Positions 964-61,027 of a stretch of 64,000 bases of DNA are shown here, one piece after another. Below the pieces are notes generated by a model. That model made no database searches. It had not been told where the DNA came from and was given only the letters and a program-made list of their open reading frames with translations. This stretch comes from a virus. The position numbers were made by a program, and so were the translations under genes. The stretch lies in the IMG/VR virus record IMGVR_UViG_3300028584_001238. One strand, 5' to 3'. Position 1 is the stretch's first letter, and every line of letters starts with the position of its first letter.

Positions 964-1419
964 TCATTTAAACAAAGAGTATATTTCTTTTTCGATATCA
1001 TGATTATATGGGTCAAAAACAGTAATGGGTGTATGAAATTTTTGATAACATAATAGTTGAAAAGATTCAATTTCTTTTTTATAGATCTCAGATCCAGCAA
1101 ATTGAACCCAGTTAGATACAGTATCTCCAATAAATTCAAAATCAAGATTACCTTCATCAAATAAAACAATATACTTATTGTTAAAAACACCTATAAATTT
1201 ATTATTTATATTCATGCAAAATTCCACATATTCATATATTTTAATAATTCTATATGCACGATCATTAACGTTTTGTGATTTTATCATTTTTTCTAATAGT
1301 TTTATATTTTTTTTTGAGAAAAAATTACCAAATTTTATAATATTTCCATAATCAAATGATTTAATTAATAATTTTTTATATTCATCACTTTTTAATATAT
1401 CAACAATACCAGTACTCAT
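964..1419 (-). CDS. probable immunity protein for upstream nuclease toxin
   Basis: 151 aa, start overlaps the toxin stop by 1 nt (TAATG), very AT-rich; position and size typical of cognate immunity genes. Confidence 0.55.
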   Translation of the reverse strand: MSTGIVDILKSDEYKKLLIKSFDYGNIIKFGNFFSKKNIKLLEKMIKSQNVNDRAYRIIKIYEYVEFCMNINNKFIGVFNNKYIVLFDEGNLDFEFIGDTVSNWVQFAGSEIYKKEIESFQLLCYQKFHTPITVFDPYNHDIEKEIYSLFK

Positions 1420-2303
1420 TATATTTCCTCATATAAACATAAATATTCATTTCTAGCATATACATTTGAAAAAGATTCTATCATTTTTCTTGATAATGTG
1501 AAACTACTCTTAAAATGATAAGCTAAATCTTTTATAGTTGCAACTTTAAGATTTAAAGAGTCTTTTTCAATTCTTGCTTCTGTATTTTTACCACCAAATG
1601 TCCGACCTGCTCTATGTACAGCTTGAGTAACTTCCAAGGTTGTAGCATTATCATTAATAATACGTCCAGTTCCAAACGCTCTATCATATAAAACACCATC
1701 TCGTTTATGAAGATAGCTTAATACGGCTCCTATTGATGGAATATGATCATGTTCTAGATGATCAGTAATTTTCTCAACAGATCTTAACTCTTTGAAAGAC
1801 CCATAATCCCATTCATGTACAGGCTTATTATAACTATTTAAAGGAATATAAACACCTTCTGTATATATTATTTTTTTACCAAAACATTCAAATTTTCTTG
1901 TTTTTGATAACATTTCACCAATTTTTGTAAGCGTCACTATGTGTGTTGCATAGTTTTCTTTATCGGCTGCTAATTTTTTCTTAAATATATCCGTATCTAA
2001 GTTTGCTCCAGAAATAATATTTCCTGCATTCGTTGCTGCAAAACTATGTGGATCAGTAATCAAGTTTTCTGATAACAGATTGTATAAATATTGACGCCCA
2101 AAAGATGATTTTGAAACCTGCCTTGCAATAGAAATAGCCCGTTCTATATTTTTACCTTCGAGTACAGCAGTAAGCATAGTTCTAGCAACGTATTGCTCAG
2201 CAAACCCAGCAATAACAACATTTTTCTTCCATCCAGCTTGAGCTTGAATACTAGAAAAAATAAGAATCAATACAATTAAAAATCGAACCATAATGTCCTC
2301 CAT
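1419..2303 (-). CDS. secreted polymorphic-type nuclease toxin (pyocin S3/Rhs-like C-terminal domain)
   Basis: Sec signal peptide (FLIVLILIFSSIQAQA; likely start Met at 2291 after GGAGG); C-terminal LEHDHIPS...NATTLEV...VH..GRTFGGKNT...D..NL pattern recalled from bacteriocin/Rhs DNase tips. Confidence 0.65.
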   Translation of the reverse strand: MEDIMVRFLIVLILIFSSIQAQAGWKKNVVIAGFAEQYVARTMLTAVLEGKNIERAISIARQVSKSSFGRQYLYNLLSENLITDPHSFAATNAGNIISGANLDTDIFKKKLAADKENYATHIVTLTKIGEMLSKTRKFECFGKKIIYTEGVYIPLNSYNKPVHEWDYGSFKELRSVEKITDHLEHDHIPSIGAVLSYLHKRDGVLYDRAFGTGRIINDNATTLEVTQAVHRAGRTFGGKNTEARIEKDSLNLKVATIKDLAYHFKSSFTLSRKMIESFSNVYARNEYLCLYEEI

Positions 2304-2320
2304 GATTTTAATGCCACTTG

Positions 2321-2349
2321 ATGATATCAGTCTGCTAGATAAAAGTCAA
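2321..2349 (-). promoter_or_regulatory. sigma70-type promoter for toxin-immunity pair
   Basis: TTGACT-17 nt-TATCAT. Confidence 0.6.
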
Positions 2350-2351
2350 TA

Positions 2352-3095
2352 TTAAATCAAACACATTTCAGTCAATAACAATCGGGATTTCAATAACTCC
2401 TTGTCATCTGTGTATTGCTTGTTAAATATAGACAATAATTGTACAGTGCCTTCAACCGTTGATATCAACTTATCATAGTTAGGGTATTCGGTGAATTCAT
2501 CATAAAATTGTTTTGGTGTCACTGAACAGCACGTTAAGAAGTCGATTAAGCAATCATCAAATTCTTTATTGGCTATAAAAAAGTTGGAACTAAGTCCAAA
2601 AGATTTCAAATCTTTTGAAACTGAATACTGCGTTTGATTAGAATAAGTGAATGTTTTAACAATACGCGATGATGGATTTAATACAGTCTTAATTTGTAAT
2701 AAACTATACTCATTACTATGAGAACGTGAAAATTCAAGACTAATATCAAAAGAAGACTGTATAAAATTCATATCATGATCAAGTTTTAAACTGCAAGATT
2801 TGGATTTGTAAGGCATTTTATTGCTAATAACACTATCAGTAATAGTGACATATACACAAATAGCAGTGTTTTCTTTGTGAGTAGATACAAGAATGCTGCC
2901 ATATTTAAATAGATAGAAAATATCAATATTACTGCCAATCATTTGAGAGACTTCCTGAAATGGATTGGGTTCGTTAGATAAATCAATATCAAATACTTGT
3001 TTGAATAAAAAAATAAATTTTGGATAAAATAATGAACCAACATCAAGGTTATCCAAGTATTTTAATTTCATCATGGACTCATGAATTGTTATCAT
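2352..3095 (-). CDS. family A (MxxI-tail) paralogue
   Basis: MITIHE start; FYxxFxEYP.Y and LLKSRLLLTEMCLI tail shared with the array. Confidence 0.85.
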   Translation of the reverse strand: MITIHESMMKLKYLDNLDVGSLFYPKFIFLFKQVFDIDLSNEPNPFQEVSQMIGSNIDIFYLFKYGSILVSTHKENTAICVYVTITDSVISNKMPYKSKSCSLKLDHDMNFIQSSFDISLEFSRSHSNEYSLLQIKTVLNPSSRIVKTFTYSNQTQYSVSKDLKSFGLSSNFFIANKEFDDCLIDFLTCCSVTPKQFYDEFTEYPNYDKLISTVEGTVQLLSIFNKQYTDDKELLKSRLLLTEMCLI

Positions 3096-3789
3096 TTAAA
3101 TAGTTCCTTAATGTTAAGTGGTTTTCAAATCCTGAATAACAAATATGTGGATATTTAGAATGTAAATCCATTAATTTAGTAAAAATTGATTGAACTAATA
3201 AATCATGCTTTATCAATAATGGATCTAACTCATATGACGTTAATTTATGTAAATAATTATAATAGATAACTTCATTAAGACTATCTTTTTCATCATCTAT
3301 TTTATGAACATCTTCTGGATTGATAAAATCCATGTCAAATATTCTTTTGGATTCAATATTGTTTAAAGTCACAGTTGAAAATAAAAAACCAACTTCAAAA
3401 TTGCAATCAATAAAATTCATGTTGTTATCTATCGTTACATTACAAGATTTTGAATTACTAGGAAGTATGAAATCTAAATGCTCATACTTAAAACTAAATG
3501 ACAACGTTAAAGTTTGTTTATCTGGATAAAGGTGTAGTGATGCCATTCCATGAATAAAATGAAAAGTTATGTAAAAGGTGCCATCAGGAGCAATACTAAA
3601 TAACGGCCAACTAAGCTCTGATAAATCAATAATAGCAGTTTGTTGAAAAGGATTCACCAGACCAGCCAAATCAATATTACAGGACTCTTTCAAAAGTTGA
3701 ACTAATTTCAAACTAATAGCCGAAGTCAATTCGTCACCTAAGCTTCTGGTCGTTTTCCTCTTAATTAACTCATTGTAAATAGTATCCAT
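3079..3789 (-). CDS. family A paralogue lacking the conserved tail
   Basis: MDTIYN start, LVQLL..SC.IDL and C.V.ID.NMNF core, but no LLLxMxxI end. Confidence 0.75.
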   Translation of the reverse strand: MDTIYNELIKRKTTRSLGDELTSAISLKLVQLLKESCNIDLAGLVNPFQQTAIIDLSELSWPLFSIAPDGTFYITFHFIHGMASLHLYPDKQTLTLSFSFKYEHLDFILPSNSKSCNVTIDNNMNFIDCNFEVGFLFSTVTLNNIESKRIFDMDFINPEDVHKIDDEKDSLNEVIYYNYLHKLTSYELDPLLIKHDLLVQSIFTKLMDLHSKYPHICYSGFENHLTLRNYLNDNNS

Positions 3790-3790
3790 T

Positions 3791-4603
3791 TTAAATAAGT
3801 CTCATTTCAAGCAATTCTATTTTACGCTGTAATAGATATTTATCAGCAGTGTATTGAGTAAAAAACAAATTTAAACATTGAATAATAGAATCAACTGACT
3901 TCATCAAAGAGTCGTAATTTGGATATTCAGGAAAAACCTCATAGAATTCGACAGAATCGAGACTATTAAAGTTTAAAAAACTAAATAGCAATTCATCGAA
4001 CTCATTAGGTGGTGATTTAAAAAAATGATTAATATTTTTATCAAATAAATTTATCAAATTGTTTTCGTCTACCGAATACAATATGTTGTTTTGATAATGT
4101 AACTTATGAGTTTTTTTTAAATCTTTGTCAATTGCAGTATAAATGATTAAAACTGACCAAACTGGCAAGGTGAAAGGTTTGCCAACAGTAGATTGAGAAT
4201 ATTGAATAACTCTTTTAAATGCACCTTCTTCAAACTGCATATCATGATTAACATTAAGATAACACACATTGCTTTTGTATGATTTTCTCGGAACTTCATT
4301 TGAAAAAGAAAATGACACATTCAAAGATTTAGACGTTGTGTCTACACTAATAAAAGAATTACCATAGGGGAATTTATAAGAAATCTCCAAATCATTGAAC
4401 TCATCAAATGAAATGTTGTGGGAACTAAAAGAATTCTCTACATCTGACAAATCAATGCCACATGAACTATTTAACAGATTAATCAAGTTTGAAGTGATCA
4501 TTGAATTTAACTCATTATCAAGTCTAAAAATAACTTCATCTCTATCATCTATATTGACAATATTGTTTTTTAACACTAAAAGTCTGTCATAAATCGTTGT
4601 CAT
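3791..4603 (-). CDS. family A paralogue
   Basis: MTTIYD start; EFYEVFPEYPNY; ends IELLEMRLI. Confidence 0.85.
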   Translation of the reverse strand: MTTIYDRLLVLKNNIVNIDDRDEVIFRLDNELNSMITSNLINLLNSSCGIDLSDVENSFSSHNISFDEFNDLEISYKFPYGNSFISVDTTSKSLNVSFSFSNEVPRKSYKSNVCYLNVNHDMQFEEGAFKRVIQYSQSTVGKPFTLPVWSVLIIYTAIDKDLKKTHKLHYQNNILYSVDENNLINLFDKNINHFFKSPPNEFDELLFSFLNFNSLDSVEFYEVFPEYPNYDSLMKSVDSIIQCLNLFFTQYTADKYLLQRKIELLEMRLI

Positions 4604-4656
4604 ATTGAAATAGCCTTCAAAAAAATAAGATTATCGCAAGTATAACACACAAGGTG

Positions 4657-5475
4657 CTATACTTTCAATTTTTCTTTATTTTCTTTAAACTGAGTTTTCA
4701 ACATATCAGCTTTAATAATTAACTGAGGCAACATCATTTCCAAACCTACCGATGCTTTTTCTTTCACATGAACATAGTTAGCATTGTATTTCATGAAGAC
4801 GGTGCTTGGATCAACCAAGATAAAATCCCTCAGACCAAAACCTTCTACCACCAATGAAGCGGCGGGTTCCACTTGAAGACTGCTGCCGACTACGACAAAA
4901 ACATCAGATTCTCTAATATGCTTTCTGGCGTCAGACAAAATGCTGTCATCTAACAGTTCGTCAAACAAAACAATATGAGGTCTAATTTGTGCTTTGGTCA
5001 ACATACATTTATCACCCAGTTTAATGTCTTTCTTCTGGTCATAGAACACTTTGGCATTACCGACTGGTCGTGAACGCATGATTTCGCCATGCAAATGATA
5101 GATAGATGAACTGCCAGCTCGTTCATGTAAGTCATCAACGTTCTGAGTGACAACGACAACATGAAAATACTTTTCAAGTTCTTTCAATATTTCATGAGAA
5201 CGATTAGGCTGAGCAGCCATCACTTCCTTACGTCTGTCATTGAAAAAATTGTTTACCTTTTTAAAGTCTTTTTGCAGAGCACGAGCCGTTGCAACTTCAT
5301 CCACACGATGATTTCTCCACAAGCCATCATCAGCCCTGAATGTTTCTAAACCGCTCTCCTGAGAGATGCCAGAACCTGTAAAGAAAGTGATCTTAGGCTT
5401 ATAATCATCAACAGAAACTTTTAACAGAGTGGCTTTATCGAAATCATCTTTTGCTTTAAATATGCGTTCTAACAT
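4657..5475 (-). CDS. cobB: NAD-dependent protein deacylase, sirtuin (CobB-like)
   Basis: TGSGISQESGLETFR, TQNVDDLHERAG, HLHGE, RPHIVLFDE, VVVGSSLQVEPAA motifs; only one Cys, so no canonical four-Cys Zn site. Confidence 0.9.
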   Translation of the reverse strand: MLERIFKAKDDFDKATLLKVSVDDYKPKITFFTGSGISQESGLETFRADDGLWRNHRVDEVATARALQKDFKKVNNFFNDRRKEVMAAQPNRSHEILKELEKYFHVVVVTQNVDDLHERAGSSSIYHLHGEIMRSRPVGNAKVFYDQKKDIKLGDKCMLTKAQIRPHIVLFDELLDDSILSDARKHIRESDVFVVVGSSLQVEPAASLVVEGFGLRDFILVDPSTVFMKYNANYVHVKEKASVGLEMMLPQLIIKADMLKTQFKENKEKLKV

Positions 5476-5586
5476 GTAACTATCCTCATATAAGTCTTGA
5501 AAGTTTAATTTAAAAATAACTGCATGTCAATTTAGTTGATTATATTGACTAGTAAAAATCTAGTGGATAGTAGACAGTAGTCATCT

Positions 5587-6336
5587 TTAAATTTTGCTCA
5601 TGCTAAGCAACAACATTCGAGACTTCAAAAGACGGTTGTCATCATTATATTGTTGAGCAAACAAGTTTAAAAATACAACAGCTTGATTAATGTCATCAAT
5701 AAATTGATTATCACTGGGATACTCTGTAAAGACATCATAAAAATCATCAGGAAACTTTTCACAAAACTGCATGAATTCCTTGAATAATAATTCAAATTCA
5801 AAGTTAGCTTTTAAATAAGTTGAATCAATACCATAATTCATTAGATCAATATAGTCTTCATTTTTGGTATTTTTGTTGTCATATCCGATTTGATTGAAGT
5901 CATTAATACCATTGAAAATGCGAATATAACGAATCAAAGCATAACCTGATGTATCCTTATTTCTCGTTTTTTTTGAAACCGATGTATAAAAGTTAAAATT
6001 AGCATCTATTAACTTCAAGTTATGGTCAGTCTTAATAATGCAACGACTGGAATGAAAAGGGATTCGAAATTTATCTGCATCTTTAATAAAGAAAGTAACT
6101 TCCATATCTTTTTCTTTTGCAGAGACATTAACTTGACCATAATTAAAATTGTAATTAAAGGTAATATCTATTCCAAAAGAAGCCCCATCAGGTTTAAATG
6201 GATTTACTTCATTGGAAAGATCAATTCCATAAACAAGTTTAAATAATGTAACCAGTGGTTCATTTACTTTTGGTGTGTAAGACCATCTAAAAGTGGGGCT
6301 TCTGCAATCAATAAAATTATCATAGAGTGTTGTCAT
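5587..6336 (-). CDS. family A paralogue
   Basis: True start MTTLYD at 6336; ends SRMLLLSMSKI. Confidence 0.85.
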   Translation of the reverse strand: MTTLYDNFIDCRSPTFRWSYTPKVNEPLVTLFKLVYGIDLSNEVNPFKPDGASFGIDITFNYNFNYGQVNVSAKEKDMEVTFFIKDADKFRIPFHSSRCIIKTDHNLKLIDANFNFYTSVSKKTRNKDTSGYALIRYIRIFNGINDFNQIGYDNKNTKNEDYIDLMNYGIDSTYLKANFEFELLFKEFMQFCEKFPDDFYDVFTEYPSDNQFIDDINQAVVFLNLFAQQYNDDNRLLKSRMLLLSMSKI

Positions 6337-6337
6337 A

Positions 6338-6425
6338 TTAAATCCCCTGCATATCAAGCAATAAAATATTCATCAGGAAAATGATTGTCTTTCAGTGCAG
6401 CCATATGTTCTAGTATTGTAGTCAT
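6338..6425 (-). pseudogene. collapsed family A relic (head plus tail)
   Basis: Begins MTTILE like the paralogues; in another frame ends LLLDMQGI-stop-T-ATG; only 88 bp. Confidence 0.75.
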
Positions 6426-6426
6426 A

Positions 6427-7188
6427 TCATATATTCTGCATATCAAGTAAAAGAAGTCGAGACTCTAATAAATAAAATTGATTAATGTATTGGAATTTAA
6501 ATAGGTTTAAAAATTCAACAGCTTTGTGAATATTTTCAATGAAATCAAGATAGCTCGGATACTCTGGAAATAGTTCATCGAATTTATGGGGTGATTTGGC
6601 ACAAGAATCCATAAAATTAGCAAAAAACAATTCAAAATTAATATCGTCAATAAAGAAATTAGCATCCAGACCTTTATCATGAAGTGATATATATTCTTTT
6701 GAAGTTGAATAGTTTTGATATTTAAAAGTAGTTTTTATTGAATCCTTATTAATAATTTTTTGAATCTTAATGTCCGCATACTCAGAACTGTTGTCATAAT
6801 TATTTAAAAGAGATTTTAAAAAAGTAACTTTATAATTAAAAACAGCAAATTTAAAATTAAAATCACGATCAATATAAACTCTGCATTGTTTGGCATTAAA
6901 TGGCGTTGTATAAACATTGTCATCTTTACCAAAAAAGTAAAAACCTACTTCTAACTCATTATCTTTCAAGCTCAAGGTAGCTGAGCCATATTTAAAGAAG
7001 TAATCCATAGCCACTTCTAAACCACATACGCTAATATTCTTAGTAAAATGAGTGGCATCCCCCTGCAGTTCTATGCCAGTTGCCTGTTGAAGCAAGGAGG
7101 CAAGTTTAGAACTAACCAAAGGCGTCATACCCCAGTTCGGTTCTTTTGTATTTTTAAAGTGTAACATCGCCTCATAAATATTCGTCAT
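6427..7188 (-). CDS. family A paralogue
   Basis: Start MTNIYE at 7188; ends SRLLLLDMQNI. Confidence 0.85.
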   Translation of the reverse strand: MTNIYEAMLHFKNTKEPNWGMTPLVSSKLASLLQQATGIELQGDATHFTKNISVCGLEVAMDYFFKYGSATLSLKDNELEVGFYFFGKDDNVYTTPFNAKQCRVYIDRDFNFKFAVFNYKVTFLKSLLNNYDNSSEYADIKIQKIINKDSIKTTFKYQNYSTSKEYISLHDKGLDANFFIDDINFELFFANFMDSCAKSPHKFDELFPEYPSYLDFIENIHKAVEFLNLFKFQYINQFYLLESRLLLLDMQNI

Positions 7189-7189
7189 A

Positions 7190-7990
7190 TTAAATTTCCA
7201 CCATATCAATTAGTAGCATATTTGATTGCAAAGTTTCAAAATTATTAAAATACTGTTCACTGAATAGGTTTAATAGTTCAACCGCATGTTTTTTATGATC
7301 GATAATATTTTGATAACTAGGATAATCAATGAAAACAGTATAAAATTGTTTTGGTTTGTTAGAACAAAGTAAAATGAATTTAACAAATAAATTTTCAAAA
7401 TCATTATCTGGTATAAAGTATTGGTTATTTAGTTCAACATTACCTAAATTAATATATTCTCCACGGTTACACTTAAAATTATCATAAGTAATAATATTAG
7501 AACTAATTTTATGTTCATTAATAATACGTTTAATATGAATAGATGCATACTTAGGATCAGTAACCAATACTGTTCCAACATATTTATTTGGATTTACTTG
7601 AAGTTCGATGTTGTTGTGAGAAAAGTTAACAAAAAAATTAAAAGTTGCCTGCTTAAAATTTAAGTCATTATCGACTTTAACTTCGCAACGAGTTGCTTTA
7701 AATGGAATGTATAGGGAATTACATGATTTTATGGTGAATAGAAAAATGACTTCCAACATTTTATTTTTAGTATATAATGATACTGTTCCATACTTGGACT
7801 TATATTCAATACTAACATCCTTCCCAAAACTAGCCATATTTTGAACAAAGAGTTCGGTTTCATCCGACAAGTCCACATTACAAGCCTGTTCTAGCAAAAC
7901 AACCAATTTAGACATAATTTGATTATTAAGGAAACTGTTAAAGCCATTCAATTTATTGCATAAAAATAGGTGATCATAAATAGTTGTCAA
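7190..7990 (-). CDS. family A paralogue
   Basis: TTG start TTIYD; ends SNMLLIDMVEI. Confidence 0.85.
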   Translation of the reverse strand: MTTIYDHLFLCNKLNGFNSFLNNQIMSKLVVLLEQACNVDLSDETELFVQNMASFGKDVSIEYKSKYGTVSLYTKNKMLEVIFLFTIKSCNSLYIPFKATRCEVKVDNDLNFKQATFNFFVNFSHNNIELQVNPNKYVGTVLVTDPKYASIHIKRIINEHKISSNIITYDNFKCNRGEYINLGNVELNNQYFIPDNDFENLFVKFILLCSNKPKQFYTVFIDYPSYQNIIDHKKHAVELLNLFSEQYFNNFETLQSNMLLIDMVEI

Positions 7991-8029
7991 TTAGATCACC
8001 TGCATATAATAATCATAAATTGTTTTCAT
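7991..8029 (-). pseudogene. collapsed family A relic, 12-aa in-frame head-tail fusion MKTIYDYYMQVI
   Basis: ATG AAA ACA ATT TAT GAT TAT TAT ATG CAG GTG ATC TAA between two full paralogues. Confidence 0.8.
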
Positions 8030-8030
8030 G

Positions 8031-8807
8031 TTATATGGCCTGCATATCAAGTAACAACATGTTTTGTTTTAATCTTTCGTCACTAAAATACTGATGAATA
8101 AACACATTAACGAAATCAATAATAGCGTCAGAATGTTCAACACAGTTAGAAAAACTTGGATATCCATCGAATACCGCATAAAATTCGTGTGGACGTTCAG
8201 TGACAAAATCGATCAATTTATAGAATGTTTCTTCCAAATCGGTATTTGGTTGAAAAAAGCGTTCATCCAGCTTACTTCGCTCAACATCAATAAATACATC
8301 ATCATCCGCATCATCTGAATGTCGGAAGGCAATAGAATTGTAAGCACCAGTCGAATCAATAACCTGCTGGATTTTCATTTGGTTATAACCACCATATCCA
8401 CCATTGTTATGGAGAACGCTGTTTAAAAATGAAAAATACATGCAATATTCAGCACGAACAAAGTTTAAATCATGGTCAACAGAAATAGTACAACGATTCG
8501 CTTCAAAAGGAGCTTTAAAGTTGTCCTTGTGATAAAACGTCACAACCAATTTATCCTGTTGAGTAGAAACATCAACAGAACCATATTCAAATTTGTAGCT
8601 AACACTTAGTTCTTGACCAATAGATGAAATGTCTCTTTTAAACATTAAAGACTTATCAGAGATATCAATGCCATAAGCTTTATGAAACAAAACTTTAAGT
8701 TTATGAATAATTAATGGATCATCCCTGACATCAGAATTAAGGTCTGTTTGGCATTCATAATTAAGTGATAATTTGCATGTCTTGAATTGTTCGTAAATTG
8801 TTTTCAT
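8031..8807 (-). CDS. family A paralogue
   Basis: MKTIYE start; ends MLLLDMQAI. Confidence 0.85.
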   Translation of the reverse strand: MKTIYEQFKTCKLSLNYECQTDLNSDVRDDPLIIHKLKVLFHKAYGIDISDKSLMFKRDISSIGQELSVSYKFEYGSVDVSTQQDKLVVTFYHKDNFKAPFEANRCTISVDHDLNFVRAEYCMYFSFLNSVLHNNGGYGGYNQMKIQQVIDSTGAYNSIAFRHSDDADDDVFIDVERSKLDERFFQPNTDLEETFYKLIDFVTERPHEFYAVFDGYPSFSNCVEHSDAIIDFVNVFIHQYFSDERLKQNMLLLDMQAI

Positions 8808-8808
8808 A

Positions 8809-9588
8809 TTAAATCGCCTGCATGTCTAATAGTAGAAGTCGTGATGTTAAAATTTCAGCATCGTCAGTATATTGTGAATAAAAAAGGTTCAAAAACGCAG
8901 TAGCCTTTGCAATGTTGGTCATAAACTCAACATAGGTTGGATATTCTGGAAAGACATTGTAGAATTCTTTCGGATTATACTCGCAAAAGGAGGTAGCGTC
9001 TACAAGTAATTGGTAAAATCTGTTATTTCCTTGAAAAAAAACTGGATTTAACTCATAGTCTTTTAAATCAATATAATCTGATGTCTCCGTTAATCCATTC
9101 AAATAGCTTACTGTGTTGGTTTGATTGAAATTTGAATCAATAGTACGAGAGATATTCAATGAACTATATACAGGCTCATCACAGTGCCGATCAATTTTTA
9201 ACTTTGAAAAGTTTGCATAATAATTAAAAACAGCTCGCTTGAAATCAAACTGATGATCAACATCAATAGCACATCTATCTGCATTTAAAGGTATTTTATA
9301 ATGATCTAAATTCTTCTTAAAAAAACTAAAATATACGGATAACTTATCATCTTTTAATGAGACGCTTGCTTCACAGTATTGACATCTATAAGTAATTTTA
9401 AGGCTATGATCAAAAATGGTAGAACCAGTATAGATCATATAAGGCTTAAAACATGTTCCTGTTGCATTCAAATCAATATCACACAACTGATTAAGTAGAT
9501 GAACTAATTTTGGAATAATGACAGAATTTAACTCTTCATTAAAAATACGAGCTTCTTTTTCTAACATACGTTCATAGATTGTTTTCAT
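8809..9588 (-). CDS. family A paralogue
   Basis: Start MKTIYE at 9588; ends SRLLLLDMQAI. Confidence 0.85.
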   Translation of the reverse strand: MKTIYERMLEKEARIFNEELNSVIIPKLVHLLNQLCDIDLNATGTCFKPYMIYTGSTIFDHSLKITYRCQYCEASVSLKDDKLSVYFSFFKKNLDHYKIPLNADRCAIDVDHQFDFKRAVFNYYANFSKLKIDRHCDEPVYSSLNISRTIDSNFNQTNTVSYLNGLTETSDYIDLKDYELNPVFFQGNNRFYQLLVDATSFCEYNPKEFYNVFPEYPTYVEFMTNIAKATAFLNLFYSQYTDDAEILTSRLLLLDMQAI

Positions 9589-9589
9589 A

Positions 9590-10336
9590 TTAAATTGCCT
9601 GCATGTCAATAAGCAGCATTCTTGACTTTAAAATATCTATATCATTAATATATTGATGGTGAAATAGATTTAAAAAGTCTTTTGCTTTCTCTATCTGTTC
9701 AATAACATGAACAAAAGAAGGATATTCAGTAAAAACACTGTAAAACATACGGGGATCTTGTTTAAAGCAATCAAGAAATTTGATTAAAAGTTGCTCAAAA
9801 TCATTATTAGGCGTTAAAAAATATGAATTTAACCCAATTGATGACATATCAGCATAAGTTCTGAATGTTGTTGAATGCAAATTGTTATACTCAACAGTAT
9901 TAAAGCGATTAAGATCTTTATCCAGCACATGGTTTATTTTAATGGCACAATACGCCGCTGAACTTTCATCACGGTTTAAGTTATATTTTGAAATGCTGAT
10001 ATAATATTCAAAACGTGCCTTTTCAAAATTCATTTCATGATCGACATCTATTTGACAATGCCATGCATTGAAAGGGAAGCTTTCTTTCATCTTTCTCAAA
10101 AATTTGAAGTCTGCCGTCAGTAAGCCTTTTTTAGATGTAACGGAAGCGACACCATTAGGGAAATGAAACTCAATGGTCACAAAACCACCTGTTATGATCG
10201 TATTACGTTTGAACTCAGCCTCTTGGCCTGACAAGTCAACACCTGAGACAATTTTCAGCAATACAATCAAACGAGCAATAATTGTAGGCTCAACAGAATA
10301 ATCCTTGTTGGTTAACTGTTCATAAATAGTGGTCAT
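9590..10336 (-). CDS. family A paralogue
   Basis: Start MTTIYE at 10336; ends SRMLLIDMQAI. Confidence 0.85.
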   Translation of the reverse strand: MTTIYEQLTNKDYSVEPTIIARLIVLLKIVSGVDLSGQEAEFKRNTIITGGFVTIEFHFPNGVASVTSKKGLLTADFKFLRKMKESFPFNAWHCQIDVDHEMNFEKARFEYYISISKYNLNRDESSAAYCAIKINHVLDKDLNRFNTVEYNNLHSTTFRTYADMSSIGLNSYFLTPNNDFEQLLIKFLDCFKQDPRMFYSVFTEYPSFVHVIEQIEKAKDFLNLFHHQYINDIDILKSRMLLIDMQAI

Positions 10337-10337
10337 A

Positions 10338-11069
10338 TTATATAGCCTGCATATCAAGCAATGAAAGTTTAGCTTTCAAGAGTTTTTTACCATTTTTATA
10401 GTCATTATTGTAAAGTCTCAAAAAATTTTTAAACTCATACTCATAAGTCAACATATCTTTATGTAATGGATAACCGTCAAAGACACTATAAAATATTTCT
10501 GGCTGGTTAAAACAATAATCAATCATTTTTAAAAATTGCTCATAAAAATTATTATTATCACTGAAATAAATTTTTGGTATTTTTTCATCTTTGAAATTAA
10601 CTCGGAGCATAAGAAAACCATACGATGAAATGCTATAAGACAATGCTGTTGTACTTTTAAAATGAGCATCAATTTTTCTGTCTAAGTTAATGGTTCCTTT
10701 TAAACCTTCTCCAACAAATGAGAAAACACTTTTAAAGATTGCTGATTTGTAGTTCATATCATCATCAGCAATAATAACAAGTTCTTGAGATCCTGCGGGA
10801 ACAATACTCCCGGTGTGCTCAATTCTTAAATGAAATTCCACCGCAATTTGATCTTCATTAATGATAATATCGACTACGGCATATTTAAATAAGGAAGTAA
10901 GTGAACAAACACCACAAACAATAGGTTCAAATTCATAATCCATTACAGAATCATCAATAGAACATGCTTGATTAAATAACGTAATCACTTTCGATTGAAT
11001 AATCGTTTGCAACGATTCAGATACAGGAGAAGCGTGTTTTAGCGATTTTATTGATTTTAATATAGACAT
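10338..11069 (-). CDS. family A paralogue
   Basis: Start MSILKS at 11069 after GGAG; ends LSLLDMQAI. Confidence 0.85.
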   Translation of the reverse strand: MSILKSIKSLKHASPVSESLQTIIQSKVITLFNQACSIDDSVMDYEFEPIVCGVCSLTSLFKYAVVDIIINEDQIAVEFHLRIEHTGSIVPAGSQELVIIADDDMNYKSAIFKSVFSFVGEGLKGTINLDRKIDAHFKSTTALSYSISSYGFLMLRVNFKDEKIPKIYFSDNNNFYEQFLKMIDYCFNQPEIFYSVFDGYPLHKDMLTYEYEFKNFLRLYNNDYKNGKKLLKAKLSLLDMQAI

Positions 11070-11127
11070 AAAACACTCCAATAATTTGCAATAACATATC
11101 ACAACGACGTGATTATATCAACAAAAA

Positions 11128-11871
11128 TTAAATATCCTGCATATCAAGTAAAAGAACCTTTGATTTTAAGTCTTTCTTACTTCTAGTATATTGTGTGTGA
11201 TACAGTCTTAAAAATGACTTAAACGCATCAGGATCATCAATCATGTTCTCATGACATGGATAATCTTCAAAAATATTATAGAAAATATCTGGTTTTGTAG
11301 AACAATACTCCAACATGTTCATCAAAGGAGCATGAAATTCATTGTTGTTTTCAAAAAAAACTTTTGGAAATCTAATTTGATTGAAGTTAATGCCACCACT
11401 GTGAAACCCGTTGATTGAATAAACAAGTTTTGATTCAAATGCTAATTGACTGTCAAAAGTCTTATCAATGTAAAAGGCACCTTTAGTATTGTCAGGATGG
11501 TGTTGGAGTTGTTCACCAAAGTTAAAACGAGATTGAAAGGTGGCCTTTTTATAGTTGAGCATGGCATCAACATCAATATGACACCATTGTGAACCTGCAG
11601 GAATCATAGGCACATTATAACTATTAAAGAAGATGCAAAGATGCAATTTGTTTGAATAGGTAGTCAACCTCAATTGTCCATATTTGAATTCATAATGGAA
11701 TTCTTCATCTATAAGAGTTTTTTTAGGAATAAAATAATCTGAGTGGTTGTTTGAAAGATCAAAAGGACAAAGATAATCAAATAATATAAGAAGTTTTTGA
11801 TTAATGAGTGCATTTAATTCTGGATTGATATTACGGTCAATAGATTTTTTTAGTTCTGAAAGAATTGTCAT
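11128..11871 (-). CDS. family A paralogue
   Basis: Ends KVLLLDMQDI. Confidence 0.85.
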   Translation of the reverse strand: MTILSELKKSIDRNINPELNALINQKLLILFDYLCPFDLSNNHSDYFIPKKTLIDEEFHYEFKYGQLRLTTYSNKLHLCIFFNSYNVPMIPAGSQWCHIDVDAMLNYKKATFQSRFNFGEQLQHHPDNTKGAFYIDKTFDSQLAFESKLVYSINGFHSGGINFNQIRFPKVFFENNNEFHAPLMNMLEYCSTKPDIFYNIFEDYPCHENMIDDPDAFKSFLRLYHTQYTRSKKDLKSKVLLLDMQDI

Positions 11872-11935
11872 AGAATAGCTCCAAAATATTTGTCATATAT
11901 TAACATATTCAGGCTATTAAAACAATGAAAATCTA

Positions 11936-12718
11936 TTAAATAGCCTGCATTTCAAGTAATAGAAGCCTTGATTCCACAATCGAAGAATCCTTGGTAAATT
12001 GATCATGGTATAAGGTCAGAAACTTTTTAACAGCTTCACTACTGGACGCTAGTTCTATATGGTCTGGGTATTCTGAAAATACGGGATAGAAAAGATTTGG
12101 TTGCATCTCGCAACACTCTAACATTTCTTTCAACGTATCATAAAAGTGGTGATTGTTTTCAAAAAACAAGGCTGGAAGATCTTTTGTTTTAAGCAAGGAA
12201 TGTGTTTTACGACTATTCCGATTGACGCAATTGATAACTGTGCTTAGTTTGAAATTTTTATCAAGAACTTTATAAAAGAAGATTGTCGCACGATGTTTAG
12301 GGCTACCCAATTTCCATCCAAAATCATAGCGGATTTCAAATTTAGCAAGCATATAATTCAAATGTTCATCTACATCAATATCGACACAATAGGCTCCTGC
12401 TGGAAGGCTTGGATGTTTTTCCTTTTTATAAAATTGAAATGAAACAAAAAAACGTTCGCCACTCAATATAACAAGAGCTTCCGCCTCACCAGCATCAGTG
12501 CCAGTATAGTTGAAATGATATTTTATTTTATAGTGCTGGTTGTAATCTTGATCAAAACTAAAATAATTTCCATCATCAGGAGACATGGTTGAGAGATCGA
12601 TGTTACATACACTTTTAAGAAGTGTAACCAGTTTCTTTTTGATAGCAACATGAAATTCGGCTGGAAACTGATTATCGCCATGATAGTTAAATGTTTTTAG
12701 ATCATCTTTAAAACTCAT
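11936..12718 (-). CDS. family A paralogue (first of array)
   Basis: Ends SRLLLLEMQAI; upstream TTGAAA-17-TAGAAT promoter near 12784-12812. Confidence 0.85.
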   Translation of the reverse strand: MSFKDDLKTFNYHGDNQFPAEFHVAIKKKLVTLLKSVCNIDLSTMSPDDGNYFSFDQDYNQHYKIKYHFNYTGTDAGEAEALVILSGERFFVSFQFYKKEKHPSLPAGAYCVDIDVDEHLNYMLAKFEIRYDFGWKLGSPKHRATIFFYKVLDKNFKLSTVINCVNRNSRKTHSLLKTKDLPALFFENNHHFYDTLKEMLECCEMQPNLFYPVFSEYPDHIELASSSEAVKKFLTLYHDQFTKDSSIVESRLLLLEMQAI

Positions 12719-13265: not shown

Positions 13266-13820
13266 TTAAATAGCCATGATTTCTTTTTCTTTCTGAGTTA
13301 ACAATCCATCAATAGTCGCCATCGTCTCATCAACGTCTTTCTGAATGGAATTACTCAATCGTTTTTCATCGTTTTCGTTGATTTCTTTATTCTTCAATTG
13401 TTTCTTATAGGCAGTAAAAGCATCTCTACGAAGATTACGTACTACAATGCGAGCACTTTCAATGTTTTGACGTAACTGCTTGATATACATTTTACGGGTT
13501 TCTTCGGTCAGTGCTGGTAACGGGACATAGATATTGATGCCAGTATTTGAAGGATTTAAGCCTAGTCCAGCGTTCAAGATAGACTTTGTGATGGCTCCTA
13601 CCGATTTGGGGTCAAATGCAAGCACTTTGAGTGTGCGAGCGTCTTCTACAACGATGGTTGCCATTTGTTTAAGTGGTGATTTTGCATTTTGGTATTCAAC
13701 AATGACTGAATCCAGTAAGCTGGGATGTGCTCGACCTGTTCGAATCTTAGCCAACGTAATCTTTAAAGACTCAATGGCTTTTGATAATTCTTTTTGTGTT
13801 TCTTTTTTAACATTAGTCAT
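13266..13820 (-). CDS. frr: ribosome recycling factor
   Basis: IRTGRAHPSLLD, LGLNP, P.LTEETRK, ARIVVRNLRRDA, KEKEIM motifs; 184 aa from ATG 13820. Confidence 0.95.
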   Translation of the reverse strand: MTNVKKETQKELSKAIESLKITLAKIRTGRAHPSLLDSVIVEYQNAKSPLKQMATIVVEDARTLKVLAFDPKSVGAITKSILNAGLGLNPSNTGINIYVPLPALTEETRKMYIKQLRQNIESARIVVRNLRRDAFTAYKKQLKNKEINENDEKRLSNSIQKDVDETMATIDGLLTQKEKEIMAI

Positions 13821-13847
13821 AATAAGTTCCTTTAAATTAAACAAATA

Positions 13848-13878
13848 AGAAAAGCACCGAATGGAAACCATTCAGTGC
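13848..13878 (-). terminator. terminator/attenuator hairpin between leader ORF and frr
   Basis: gcactgaatgg-ttt-ccattcggtgc 11-bp stem followed by TTTTCTT. Confidence 0.7.
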
Positions 13879-15961: not shown

Positions 15962-16246
15962 TTAGTGTAGTTTATTACGAATTTTTTCGTATAGACTAAG
16001 CTGTGTATTATTAAGTATGTGTTTAATGTCATGATTGGCATCAGCAGCTTTATTTTTAAGAACTGAACAAATCTCTTTTCTTTGGTGGGAATTCAATTTC
16101 AAATTTCTATAATCATCCTTGAAATGATCCCCTAAAAGTTGATTCATCTCATTCTTTTCATGTACCTTAGTTTGAACGAGTCTTTTGACTCCATAAACCA
16201 CAGGTAATAATGCGGCAATAGCAATCGGAACTGTATTTTTTTTCAT
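15962..16246 (-). CDS. LTXXQ-like small protein
   Basis: N-terminal hydrophobic stretch; LKLNSHQRKEI and LNNTQ resemble the neighbour. Confidence 0.45.
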   Translation of the reverse strand: MKKNTVPIAIAALLPVVYGVKRLVQTKVHEKNEMNQLLGDHFKDDYRNLKLNSHQRKEICSVLKNKAADANHDIKHILNNTQLSLYEKIRNKLH

Positions 16247-16353
16247 ACACCCTCCTTACTGTTGGTCTTCATCATCTTACTATAAAAATACAAAAAGTAA
16301 AGAGCAGATCACAAATTTAAATATAACACAGGTCTTTTTTAGAACTTAAATAT

Positions 16354-16385
16354 AAAAAAAAAGACCTATTTCTAGGTCTTTTTTT
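16354..16385. terminator. bidirectional intrinsic terminator
   Basis: A run-agacct atttct aggtct-T run. Confidence 0.8.
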
Positions 16386-16459
16386 GTGTTGCTTTAATCA
16401 TTTGGTGGAGGGCGTTAAATTGCCACTTAAAAAAACCGCACCGCTTGATTTATTTCCAT

Positions 16460-16766
16460 TCTAATATCATCATCTATCATAAGTTTAATTATCTAATAGT
16501 TGTTGACTACGGCATGGGCAGCTCACCTCCGAGCACTTCATTTTAAACAATTTTAAAGTGAATGTTTATGTGTTTGTTATACTCTAATATTATATCATCA
16601 ATTTAATTATCTAATTTTAGTGTATTACGGCATTCCTAGTTCACCTCTGGCACTTATCTAATTATCAAGTGGTTAATGTTTATTTTAAAGCTAGTATCAT
16701 CATATTAAATAGTATCATTCTCTAATTTGATTACTTACTCCATCGGTAGTTCACCTCGGGCACTTA
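16460..16766 (-). repeat. three degenerate ~110-118-nt repeats, each with SD plus start-codon-stop minigene
   Basis: AAGTGC-N2-3-GAGGTGA-N7-ATG CCG TAG (16507-16515), ATG CCG TAA (16625-16633), ATG GAG TAA (16735-16743), each followed by ATTAGA(T/G)AAT and TGATGATA. Confidence 0.85.
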
Positions 16767-16820
16767 ATTAGTATAACTGGTTGTTTTCGTTAGGGTTCTT
16801 GTTCTTGTCTTGATGTGTCT

Positions 16821-16849
16821 ATAATACCGAAAACCGTTCCTTATGGCAA
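16821..16849 (-). promoter_or_regulatory. sigma70-type promoter for minigene transcript
   Basis: TTGCCA-17 nt-TATTAT. Confidence 0.65.
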
Positions 16850-16878
16850 GCACTTTTTTCACTATTTTTGAAAATATT

Positions 16879-17874
16879 TTAGAACTTGAAAAACCCAAAA
16901 GCGTCCTTAATTTCATTGACGTTCTGGTTCGTTTCTGTTAGTGCTTTCATTGTCCCCTGCTTCAAGACATCAAGCACAAAATCATGGTGGTTATTCAACA
17001 AGAGACGTTTCTCTCTGATAGGAGCAATGACAGTTTCTAAAACACCCACCAGACGCTTTTTTAATGTGCCATCACCTAACCCGCCACGTAGATAGAACTC
17101 TTTAAGGTTCGCCACCTCATCCACATCAGGATCGAAAGCATCAAGATAAGTGAACACTACGTTACCTTCTACTTGGCCGGGATCTTCAACTCGCAAGTGA
17201 TTGCTGTCTGTAAACATCAAATTGACGGCCTTTTGAATGTCTTTAATGCTTGCGTATAGATTAATCGTATTACCGAGCGATTTGCTCATTTTAGACTTAC
17301 CATCGAGGCTTGGCAGTCTTCCTACTGTCGAGGTAAGAGCTTTGATTGTAGGAACAATCTCAAAACCTATCTGGGAGTTAAGCTTGTGGACAATCTCGTT
17401 CGCTTGCTCAATCAACGGAAGCTGGTCTTCCCCGACTGGAACAAGGTCAGCTTTGAACGCTGTAATATCAGCAGCTTGTGCAACAGGATAGGCTAAGAAA
17501 CCTGCTGGAATGCTGCGTTCGAAATTTTTAGCTTTAATCTCATCACGAATGGTAGGATTCCGTTCTAAGCGAGAGACAGTGACAAGGTTTAGATACAACA
17601 AAGTCAGTTCTGCAATAGCTGGGAGATGTGATTGAACACAAATCGTAGTCTTGTTCGGGTCAATACCACAAGCCAGATAGTCTTTAGCGACTTCAATGAC
17701 GTTATCACGCACTTTGGTAGGATTACCCATATTGTCGGTCAACGCCTGATTGTCAGCAATCAAGACCGTTTGCTGGTGCAGGTGCTGCAGCTCTACTCGA
17801 TTTCGCAATGACCCTACGAAATGCCCAAGATGAAGTGAACCTGTTGGCCTATCGCCAGTTAAGATCTTTGACAT
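16879..17874 (-). CDS. trpS: tryptophan--tRNA ligase
   Basis: LTGDRPTGSLHLGH (HIGH-like), YPVAQAADI, VPVGEDQ, KMSKS motifs. Confidence 0.95.
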   Translation of the reverse strand: MSKILTGDRPTGSLHLGHFVGSLRNRVELQHLHQQTVLIADNQALTDNMGNPTKVRDNVIEVAKDYLACGIDPNKTTICVQSHLPAIAELTLLYLNLVTVSRLERNPTIRDEIKAKNFERSIPAGFLAYPVAQAADITAFKADLVPVGEDQLPLIEQANEIVHKLNSQIGFEIVPTIKALTSTVGRLPSLDGKSKMSKSLGNTINLYASIKDIQKAVNLMFTDSNHLRVEDPGQVEGNVVFTYLDAFDPDVDEVANLKEFYLRGGLGDGTLKKRLVGVLETVIAPIREKRLLLNNHHDFVLDVLKQGTMKALTETNQNVNEIKDAFGFFKF

Positions 17875-57688: not shown

Positions 57689-57762
57689 TGGCCGGTGAAG
57701 TAGGACTTGAACCCACGAGTATGGTTACAACACCATTTGCTCACCATTTGAGCGTTTCACCG
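57689..57762 (-). tRNA. tRNA-like gene with aberrant anticodon arm (identity unresolved)
   Basis: Perfect 7-bp acceptor CGGTGAA/TTCACCG, G73, encoded CCA, D and T arms; anticodon stem ATGGT/ACCAT closes only a 6-nt loop GTTGTA. Confidence 0.7.
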
Positions 57763-60953: not shown

Positions 60954-61027
60954 TGGAGGCTGATGAGGGAATCGAACCCCCATACTCGGATTTGCAATCC
61001 GGTACATGACCATTCTGCCAATCAGCC
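60954..61027 (-). tRNA. tRNA-Cys(GCA)
   Basis: 74-nt cloverleaf, loop TT-GCA-AA, U73, encoded CCA. Confidence 0.92.

Follow-up and report, generated by a model that had tools for sequence, protein, structure and literature searches.

The closest described counterparts of the RNA considered here are the bar minigenes of phage lambda, two-codon reading frames (AUG-AUA-stop) with a Shine–Dalgarno (SD) sequence that cause peptidyl-tRNA drop-off and tRNA starvation. We analysed a 64,000-nt stretch of DNA from a virus record (IMG/VR IMGVR_UViG_3300028584_001238; the window hereafter means this whole stretch), which carries on its minus strand, between trpS and frr, an array of three SD–ATG–stop units with relatives on other contigs. 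As in bar, these units combine an SD with an AUG that is followed by one or two sense codons and usually UAA, in an AU-rich context on a phage or phage-like element. Bar sites, however, are embedded in longer lambda transcripts and were recognized by the toxicity that they cause in cells deficient in Pth, whereas the present units form dedicated RNA genes, are arranged in arrays, are conserved across genomes and are often co-transcribed with tRNAs. Moreover, the members of the family in which the stop directly follows the start cannot trap a tRNA, the last sense codon is not fixed, and the units have no sequence homology to bar. According to one published account, minigenes inhibit most when they are shortest (PMC2490762, citing Hernandez-Sanchez 1998), and the reading frames of the family fall within that range of lengths.

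Start-stop sites of Escherichia coli, detected by Ribo-RET (yecJ, hslR), consist of an SD-like sequence and AUG-stop, and bind ribosomes although nothing is produced from them (bioRxiv 10.1101/520783). By sequence, four or five members of the family have precisely this composition of SD plus AUG-stop, but the E. coli sites are located within protein genes, where they modulate the host open reading frame (ORF) in cis, whereas the units described here belong to stand-alone RNAs and mostly have one or two sense codons. In the STAB-SD of Bacillus thuringiensis cryIIIA and the leader of B. subtilis hbs, a strong SD recruits a ribosome for a purpose other than making protein (PMC5737220, PMC3997798). 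These stabilizers protect a downstream coding region; in the array no cargo follows, and AUG and stop are kept as well. The literature searched contains no account of minigene RNA genes that are dedicated, conserved and tRNA-linked, and a survey of huge phages that lists translation proteins and tRNAs, RRF included, lists no such RNA (PMC7162821). Judged from their sequences, the units are an RNA family of very large, AT-rich, tRNA-rich phage-like elements that has not been described before.

In the window, a promoter (16849–16821) and a terminator (16385–16356) on the minus strand enclose about 460 nt without a protein gene, which agrees with the dedicated non-coding transcription unit proposed in an earlier note on this DNA. 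The features are as follows (G001 and G005 are two of five related contigs described below; mini-ORF denotes the ORF of one unit).

16821–16849, minus strand: sigma-70-type promoter, TTGCCA-17-TATTAT, 10/12 matches, preceded by an A-tract at 16850–16857
16766–16814, minus strand: 5′ leader, the start of which, ACACATCAAGAC.AGAA, is kept in the arrays of G001 and G005
16656–16765, minus strand: unit 1, AAGTGCCC, with AAGTGC-N2-3-GAGGTGA at 16765–16751 and SD GAGGTGA at 16757–16751
16735–16743, minus strand: mini-ORF of unit 1, ATG (16743–16741), GAG, TAA (16737–16735), after a 7-nt spacer and before an AU-rich tail
16539–16655, minus strand: unit 2, AAGTGCCA, with AAGTGC-N2-3-GAGGTGA at 16655–16641 and SD at 16647–16641
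16625–16633, minus strand: mini-ORF of unit 2, ATG (16633–16631), CCG, TAA (16627–16625), after a 7-nt spacer and before an AU-rich tail
16445–16538, minus strand: unit 3, AAGTGCTCG, with AAGTGC-N2-3-GAGGTGA at 16538–16523 and SD at 16529–16523
16507–16515, minus strand: mini-ORF of unit 3, ATG (16515–16513), CCG, TAG (16509–16507), after a 7-nt spacer and before an AU-rich tail
16404–16444, minus strand: 3′ module, a small hairpin domain, GGTGCGG ... GGC-loop-GCC ... CTCCACC
16356–16385, minus strand: Rho-independent terminator, 13-bp stem, 4-nt loop and T-run

The promoter, terminator, three units and tail motifs had all been described in the earlier note, and each was found where it had placed them on the minus strand. 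Unit-to-unit spacing is 110 and 118 nt, and the three copies have a mean column identity of 73%; they are too diverged for the array to be called by Tandem Repeats Finder. AAGTGC-N2-3-GAGGTGA matches three times in the window versus none in 100 dinucleotide-preserving shuffles, and each unit tail carries ATTAGA(T/G)AAT and (A)TGATGATA. The SD complementarity of unit 3 reaches 8 nt if the preceding G is counted, and unit 1 matches the family profile with an nhmmer E-value of 8e-13. Inside the transcript there is no ORF longer than 33 aa on either strand, and a 50-aa frame (16916–16764) merely overlaps the end of trpS, the promoter and the leader.

Much of this architecture recurs elsewhere. The promoter and leader start of the window, AGACACAT, are found again ahead of the arrays of relatives (loci L052 and L024), and comparable same-strand terminators close every related array. 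The 3′ module is kept in L009, L053, L054, L055 and L052, and in two relatives both sides of its stem have changed, from GGC/GCC to GAC/GTC. The terminator of the window has T-runs on both strands and could work in both directions. In L019 (about 5480–5545, plus strand; compare 16425–16395 of the window), a tandem duplication of about 31 nt lies inside the 3′ module, so that TTAACGCCCTCCACCAACTGATTAAAGCAAC is present twice.

TrpRS proteins 94–98% identical to that of the window are encoded on five IMG/VR contigs of 152–437 kb (G001–G005); two of the five have the same array behind trpS, and three have other DNA there and diverged arrays elsewhere. Further members came from metagenome contigs through a scan for two SD-R-C-N5-ATG cores 78–108 nt apart. 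Collapsing copies at least 90% identical left 36 non-redundant units, in 34 clusters at <70% identity, drawn from the window, the five giant-element contigs and several metagenome contigs (at least 10 contigs). Among about 185,000 bacterial and archaeal species (one genome each), none showed the tandem signature: 10 matches turned out to be unrelated tandem or direct repeats with a chance pattern, mostly in GC-rich DNA. Many metagenome matches were likewise unrelated repeats, such as the MSIA, MLTPAI and MIKKVI repeats. A plasmid collection gave no DNA match, and a phage collection gave trpS-level matches only.

All 36 units keep GAGGTGA-R-C-Y-N4-ATG, with a spacer fixed at 7 nt, followed by an in-frame stop after 0–4 sense codons; retention of SD, spacer, ATG and stop in homologues had been set in advance as a check on the earlier note's proposal. 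The four N bases of the spacer vary, the GTGCC prefix is nearly invariant, and the tails and inter-unit DNA are poorly kept (mean column identity across the family, 60%). Counting the ATG, the in-frame ORF has one codon in 4 units, two in 11, three in 20 and five in 1. All 36 units have the sequence composition of a lambda bar-type minigene (SD, initiation distance, AUG, short ORF and stop), 31 of them with 2–3 codons. Start-stops number 4/36, to which one variant copy can be added, and the window contains none. The sense codons that follow the ATG average 1.5 in frame (maximum 4) versus 8.9 and 8.6 in the other two frames, where they reach up to 32 (Mann–Whitney p ~2e-12 and ~3e-13). The stop falls at codon 2, 3, 4 or 6 and is TAA in 30 units, TGA in 4 and TAG in 2, and the next base is mostly T or G. 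Because its position and type vary between units, what is maintained is a stop and no single fixed sequence.

The second codon, which is the A-site codon of the initiation complex, is constrained as well. It is CAG in 22 units, CCG in 6, GAG, AAG, CGG and GTG in one each and a stop in 4, and so takes the form NNG in every unit that has a sense codon (32/32). In the element's own ORFs, G stands at 12–14% of third positions, CCG makes up 6–7% of Pro codons and CAG 24–27% of Gln codons. The third codon of three-codon units is unconstrained (His, Asn, Tyr, Ile, Ser, Phe or Leu). The second codons of the window, CCG and GAG, are atypical of a family dominated by CAG; the drain of tRNA-Pro and tRNA-Glu and the slow termination after Pro put forward in the earlier note therefore reflect peculiarities of the window. 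Nor are the units leftover gene starts, as neither the 64-kb window nor G001 (complete record, 290 kb) has an ORF of more than 5 codons headed by GAGGTGA-7-ATG. Real genes in these two sequences mostly show an SD complementarity of 4–5 nt.

We favour the view, at a probability of roughly 55%, that the array is a dedicated non-coding RNA gene with three mini-cistrons, the selected property of which would be ribosome engagement with minimal translation. The combination of an unusually long SD, a spacing that is both fixed and optimal, an AUG, a constrained A-site codon, a nearby but variable stop and an unstructured context suggests such selection, and the conservation pattern in relatives lends support to the selection on translation initiation that the earlier note had read from the window. 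The anatomy of the array, the pattern of conservation, the absence of a coding or structural alternative and the arrangement for co-transcription are observed; we infer the binding of ribosomes and a physiological effect. The 7–8-nt SD match GAGGUGA, placed exactly 7 nt before the AUG, would assemble an initiation complex; a conserved purine mismatch follows GAGGUGA, and the C-Y after it could also pair with the 16S 3′ tail. This complex would present in its A site a G-ending codon that is rare in the element (CAG or CCG; CCG or GAG in the window) or a stop, and the in-frame stop 0–4 codons further on would release any ribosome that advances. As many units are the sole cargo of their transcript, the effect is probably exerted in trans: the array RNA would hold ribosomes as initiation complexes with a vacant A site, and would act in step with the tRNA and translation-factor genes of the element.

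Several points weigh against this interpretation. The search patterns demanded SD-7-ATG, so the constancy of the core is partly built in, and because the units are homologous their counts are not independent events. In an unfiltered nhmmer profile search that covered the window, G001 in full and the remaining family loci, all significant matches were canonical except one in G005, GAGGTG-GCTAAAA-ATG-TAA, which is one base shorter but keeps the stop directly after the start; the profile depends on the same core, however, and fully decayed copies could escape it. The element's own genes also use an SD, and a ribosome sponge would impair their translation as well. Toxicity of the bar type has been seen mainly in cells that lack sufficient Pth (PMC2490762); nothing in the element points to an anti-Pth function, and pth genes are absent from all five relatives.

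Contigs from RNA libraries of three studies fall inside the array:

16588–16738: metatranscriptome contig of X16, 1 difference, covering unit 2
16613–16795: metatranscriptome contig of X17, covering unit 2
16421–16592: metatranscriptome contig of X20, 2 differences, covering unit 3

A fourth library, of uncertain type, spans 16482–16915. These contigs are compatible with transcription of the array; the evidence is tempered by the fact that the runs were picked via this stretch, that strand, ends and level are not given and that DNA carry-over is possible.

What ribosome engagement would achieve is a separate matter, and the candidate effects carry lower probabilities. Sequestration of ribosomes, or a takeover of translation, is compatible with these features, although we give it a small chance: a rare G-ending codon or a stop in the A site would make the complex longer-lived, and the long SD would favour rebinding. 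We give about the same small chance to a decoy for A-site mRNA interferases of the RelE type, for which an initiation complex with a vacant A site is the classical substrate. RelE prefers Py-Pu-G codons (CAG, UCG and UAG), has a higher kcat/KM for G-ending codons and cleaves after C and before G (PMC2807027, PMC5224514). Such a decoy would account for a constraint on codon 2 that spares codon 3 and the length of the ORF; the agreement of CAG, CCG or stop at codon 2 with the best RelE substrates reported, an unexpected point in favour of the decoy raised in the earlier note, is a correlation only. More doubtful is bar-type peptidyl-tRNA drop-off, which the start-stop units and the variable last codons make unlikely as a common function. 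For the same reasons, the drain of elongator tRNAs suggested in the earlier note does not hold as a general effect, since four start-stop units cannot trap one and the last sense codon of three-codon units varies. Tentatively, and at odds clearly below even, we propose that the units are a new class of trans-acting 'ribosome-parking' RNA, which would be made in bulk with the tRNAs of the element and serve as a decoy for toxins of the RelE, HigB or YoeB type or as a tunable sponge.

The units do not behave as a structured RNA. Rfam at the gathering score finds nothing in the window beyond two tRNA matches, and permissive thresholds over 16200–17000 give at best 23.6 bits against a gathering score of 56; a known family (riboswitch, T-box, leader, small RNA or CRISPR repeat) was therefore rejected. 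No excess of structure over shuffles was found in folds of units or whole transcripts (pairing probability 0.52 versus 0.51; z-scores of unit folds mostly −1.4 to +1.5), which also disposes of a structured-RNA reading. The SD and AUG are not systematically sequestered in the predicted folds, and AU-rich hairpins recur after the stop but stay below significance. With the CsrB and RsmY/Z sponges the array shares several copies of an SD-like motif on one RNA; unlike their GGA motifs, which sit in hairpin loops every 10–30 nt, GGA occurs here only in GGAGGUGA variants and in no conserved hairpin, and an AUG is kept at a fixed distance from GAGGUGA. The order of promoter, tandem RNA repeats, terminator and gene is also that of type III toxin–antitoxin arrays (ToxI, CptI). 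ToxI-type repeats are 36–45 nt long, near-identical and pseudoknotted and always lie beside a gene for a ToxN-like endoribonuclease, whereas the present units are 100–118 nt long, about 60–70% identical and unstructured. No gene for a ToxN/AbiQ-type endoribonuclease was found beside the array, where the adjacent ORF (94 aa) has no Pfam or PHROG match and the neighbours vary among relatives.

At every locus the units share their strand with the flanking promoter, tRNAs and terminator, and the 10 units of G001 all have the same orientation as its 35 tRNA genes. This co-orientation with the SD strand rules out plus-strand small RNAs directed against SD and AUG, such as the streptococcal csRNAs. 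The 3′ module was also considered as an anti-SD and rejected, as CCUCC is not kept in it (CTCCC in G005).

The loci fall into two types of operon. In the first, stand-alone arrays of 2–5 units have their own promoter, a conserved leader start, the 3′ domain and a terminator, as in the window, in G002–G005 and in the five-unit array of G001. The second, which makes up about half of the independent loci, comprises a promoter, sometimes a small basic ORF, tRNA-Leu(UAA) and/or tRNA-Arg(UCU), two units and a terminator; in some of these operons the units precede the tRNA. Non-tRNA repeats that are co-transcribed with tRNAs and processed out are known from the E. coli tyrT operon (rtT/tpr) and from phage T4 (RNA C and D), and the present units, likewise co-transcribed with tRNAs and with a small basic ORF beside some modules, recall them. 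They differ in that the units have no Rfam match and that rtT-type RNAs are not defined by an SD–AUG–stop core. The basic ORF, of about 42 aa and ending in RRNRHSDE or similar, lies directly upstream of the tRNAs (L085, 1740–1612, minus strand; L002, about 11700–11615, minus strand) and is reminiscent of the protamine-like tpr of the tyrT operon. In L032 (2459–2392, minus strand), two units of a tRNA-Arg operon are separated by a pair of 8-codon ORFs (MKEEFDDI and MKDEHDDL), each preceded by an SD, which could be further micro-cistrons of another type.

This arrangement raises the possibility that the units are cis accessories of tRNA operons, in which a parked ribosome guards the transcript from 5′-end-dependent RNases or Rho, or guides processing. 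About half of the loci do place units beside tRNA-Leu(UAA) or tRNA-Arg(UCU) in one transcription unit, and RNase J1 is known to be stopped by ribosomes that initiate at a strong SD (PMC5737220; review of STAB-SD, PMC3997798). We nevertheless consider it improbable, because units in tRNA modules are mostly 3′ of the tRNA, where they give no shield against attack from the 5′ end, and the stand-alone arrays (window, G002–G005 and the five-unit array of G001) have no other cargo to protect. Rho loading sites would also be few in such AT-rich RNA.

Alternatively, the likeness to SD and AUG could be incidental and the core, whether as RNA or as DNA, a binding site for a protein encoded by the element, for instance an operator, a promoter for an element-specific polymerase, or a partition or replication repeat. 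TAGATAAT-like boxes recur before and after each core, −10-like hexamers lie ahead of units 2 and 3, and the unit spacing is near 10–11 helical turns. Promoter-like sites are, however, at chance level (5 found, 5.4 expected), and no conserved neighbouring protein gene was seen. A binding site would leave unexplained the in-frame stop at shifting positions and the difference between frames, as well as the strict co-orientation with transcription and the match to the universal 16S 3′ end, and we rate it as decidedly improbable. Frame-specific maintenance of the stop is indeed the observation that most of the rival explanations fail to account for.

A third alternative takes the core as antisense to the 3′ end of 16S rRNA, reaching past the anti-SD into the 3′ strand of helix 45, for example in precursor or damaged 30S subunits. 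The core resembles the reverse complement of that end, with GAGGUGA-G-CCA-R variants matching 12/13; as read from the letters, ACCG...CAG could pair with 1521–1526 if the AUG bulges, and the predicted duplex is stronger than in tail-shuffled controls (−21.8 versus −19.1 kcal/mol). The effect is nonetheless below 1 sd per unit, with just 10–13/36 units scoring better than 90% of the shuffles made from them, conservation is lowest at the four spacer bases required for this pairing, and the conserved purine mismatch breaks the helix. Since helix 45 is folded in mature subunits and the maintained stop would again go unexplained, this explanation is very improbable.

Selection for ribosome engagement also has to be set against a role in the control of frr. 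An association with frr, noted earlier from the window, stands in part: frr comes directly after the array in G002 and G003, with the terminator of the array about 400 nt before the gene, and in the window and G004 it is about 2.5–3.6 kb from frr with small ORFs between, but frr is absent from G001 and G005, the two most complete relatives, both of which carry units. The gene next to the array is not conserved, being frr, a tRNA or a small ORF. That the array is a cis leader, responsive to the capacity for translation or ribosome recycling and regulating read-through to frr or the small ORFs, is hardly credible, even though leader ORFs are common elements of attenuators and frr does follow closely in G002 and G003. 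A strong terminator and a fresh promoter separate array and next gene, many units are followed by a tRNA or by a terminator beyond which there is no gene, and G001 and G005 have units but no frr. It is just as improbable that the units are selfish or neutral repeats without function that spread with tRNA modules, since the variable unit number among close relatives (L016 has one unit fewer, via a hybrid of units b and c of L012) and the presence or absence of the array at the trpS site among relatives of 94–98% identity must be set against a core and nearby stop that are invariant across 34 clusters at <70% overall identity, with dedicated promoters, leaders, 3′ modules and terminators.

On the minus strand of the window, trpS (16879–17874) lies directly upstream of the array and frr (13266–13871) about 2.5 kb downstream. 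The window has a GC content of 29–38% and 71 predicted proteins, about 90% of them without a Pfam match; those with one include Lgt, a cation-efflux protein, Sir2 and a methyltransferase, and three HNH endonucleases were identified in addition with PHROGs. On the minus strand, 1419–12718 is occupied by about 15 ORFs in a row, of 236–294 aa each, which form an apparent family of tandem paralogues, one member of which (4657–5475) matches Sir2 (PHROG 2162, E = 2e-40; Pfam SIR2). A canonical tRNA-Cys(GCA) is located at 60954–61027 (minus strand), and a weak match to the tRNA model at 57692–57762 (minus strand; 34 bits), which ARAGORN does not call, may be a tRNA-like RNA. The five IMG/VR relatives consist mostly of ORFans; G001 has about 32% GC and ORFs of at most 633 aa, and carries a gene for a T4-type RNA ligase and TnpB-like genes. 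Its 35 tRNA genes on one strand (L137–L151; e.g. 179840–179914 and 180849–180923) include tRNA-Leu(UAA) 11 times, tRNA-Met(CAU) 7 times and tRNA-Arg(UCU) 4 times. Two G001 tRNAs have a CUA anticodon and resemble amber suppressors, a hint of possible TAG read-through or recoding.

Four of the five relatives bear the IMG/VR label 'provirus', and at least G001 and G002 were cut from longer metagenome contigs (1.54 and 1.86 Mb). The family-bearing metagenome contigs include Ga0308158_10000001 of 1.86 Mb (L085, L126, L127) and Ga0247725_1000001 of 1.54 Mb (L104, L116). TrpRS and RRF are bacterial in type; RRF shares no more than 48% identity with its gammaproteobacterial counterparts, and an exact look-up of the TrpRS gave no match. 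Searches of the five relatives for Terminase_6N, a tail sheath and 16S rRNA were negative, and the phage carrier and the action during infection assumed in the earlier note are thus not established. We refer to the carrier as a giant phage-like element, the replicon of which could be a giant phage, another extrachromosomal element or an island within a small genome, and statements about 'infection' for the array would follow only by inference. One record filed as a phage, CAKLQF020000003.1 ('Acinetobacter phage MD-2021a'; L136), carries sucABCD, lpdG, trpS and other housekeeping genes and looks like a contig of a bacterial chromosome.

Minigenes have so far been a laboratory curiosity, in lambda bar and synthetic constructs, and start-stops minor cis elements within genes. 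The family described here consists of natural, multi-copy RNA genes, set among tRNA genes, trpS and frr, the sole conserved content of which reads as 'bind a ribosome, then let go'. If ribosome engagement is indeed its selected property, huge mobile elements would steer translation by RNA too, beyond the proteins and tRNAs that they import (PMC7162821), and the arrays would offer a natural system for asking whether drop-off, sequestration or toxin decoying serves real conflicts. The motif is simple enough to be sought in other genomes. Should the units act by parking ribosomes or as decoys, they would represent a principle of RNA-based counter-defence or host control without described precedent.

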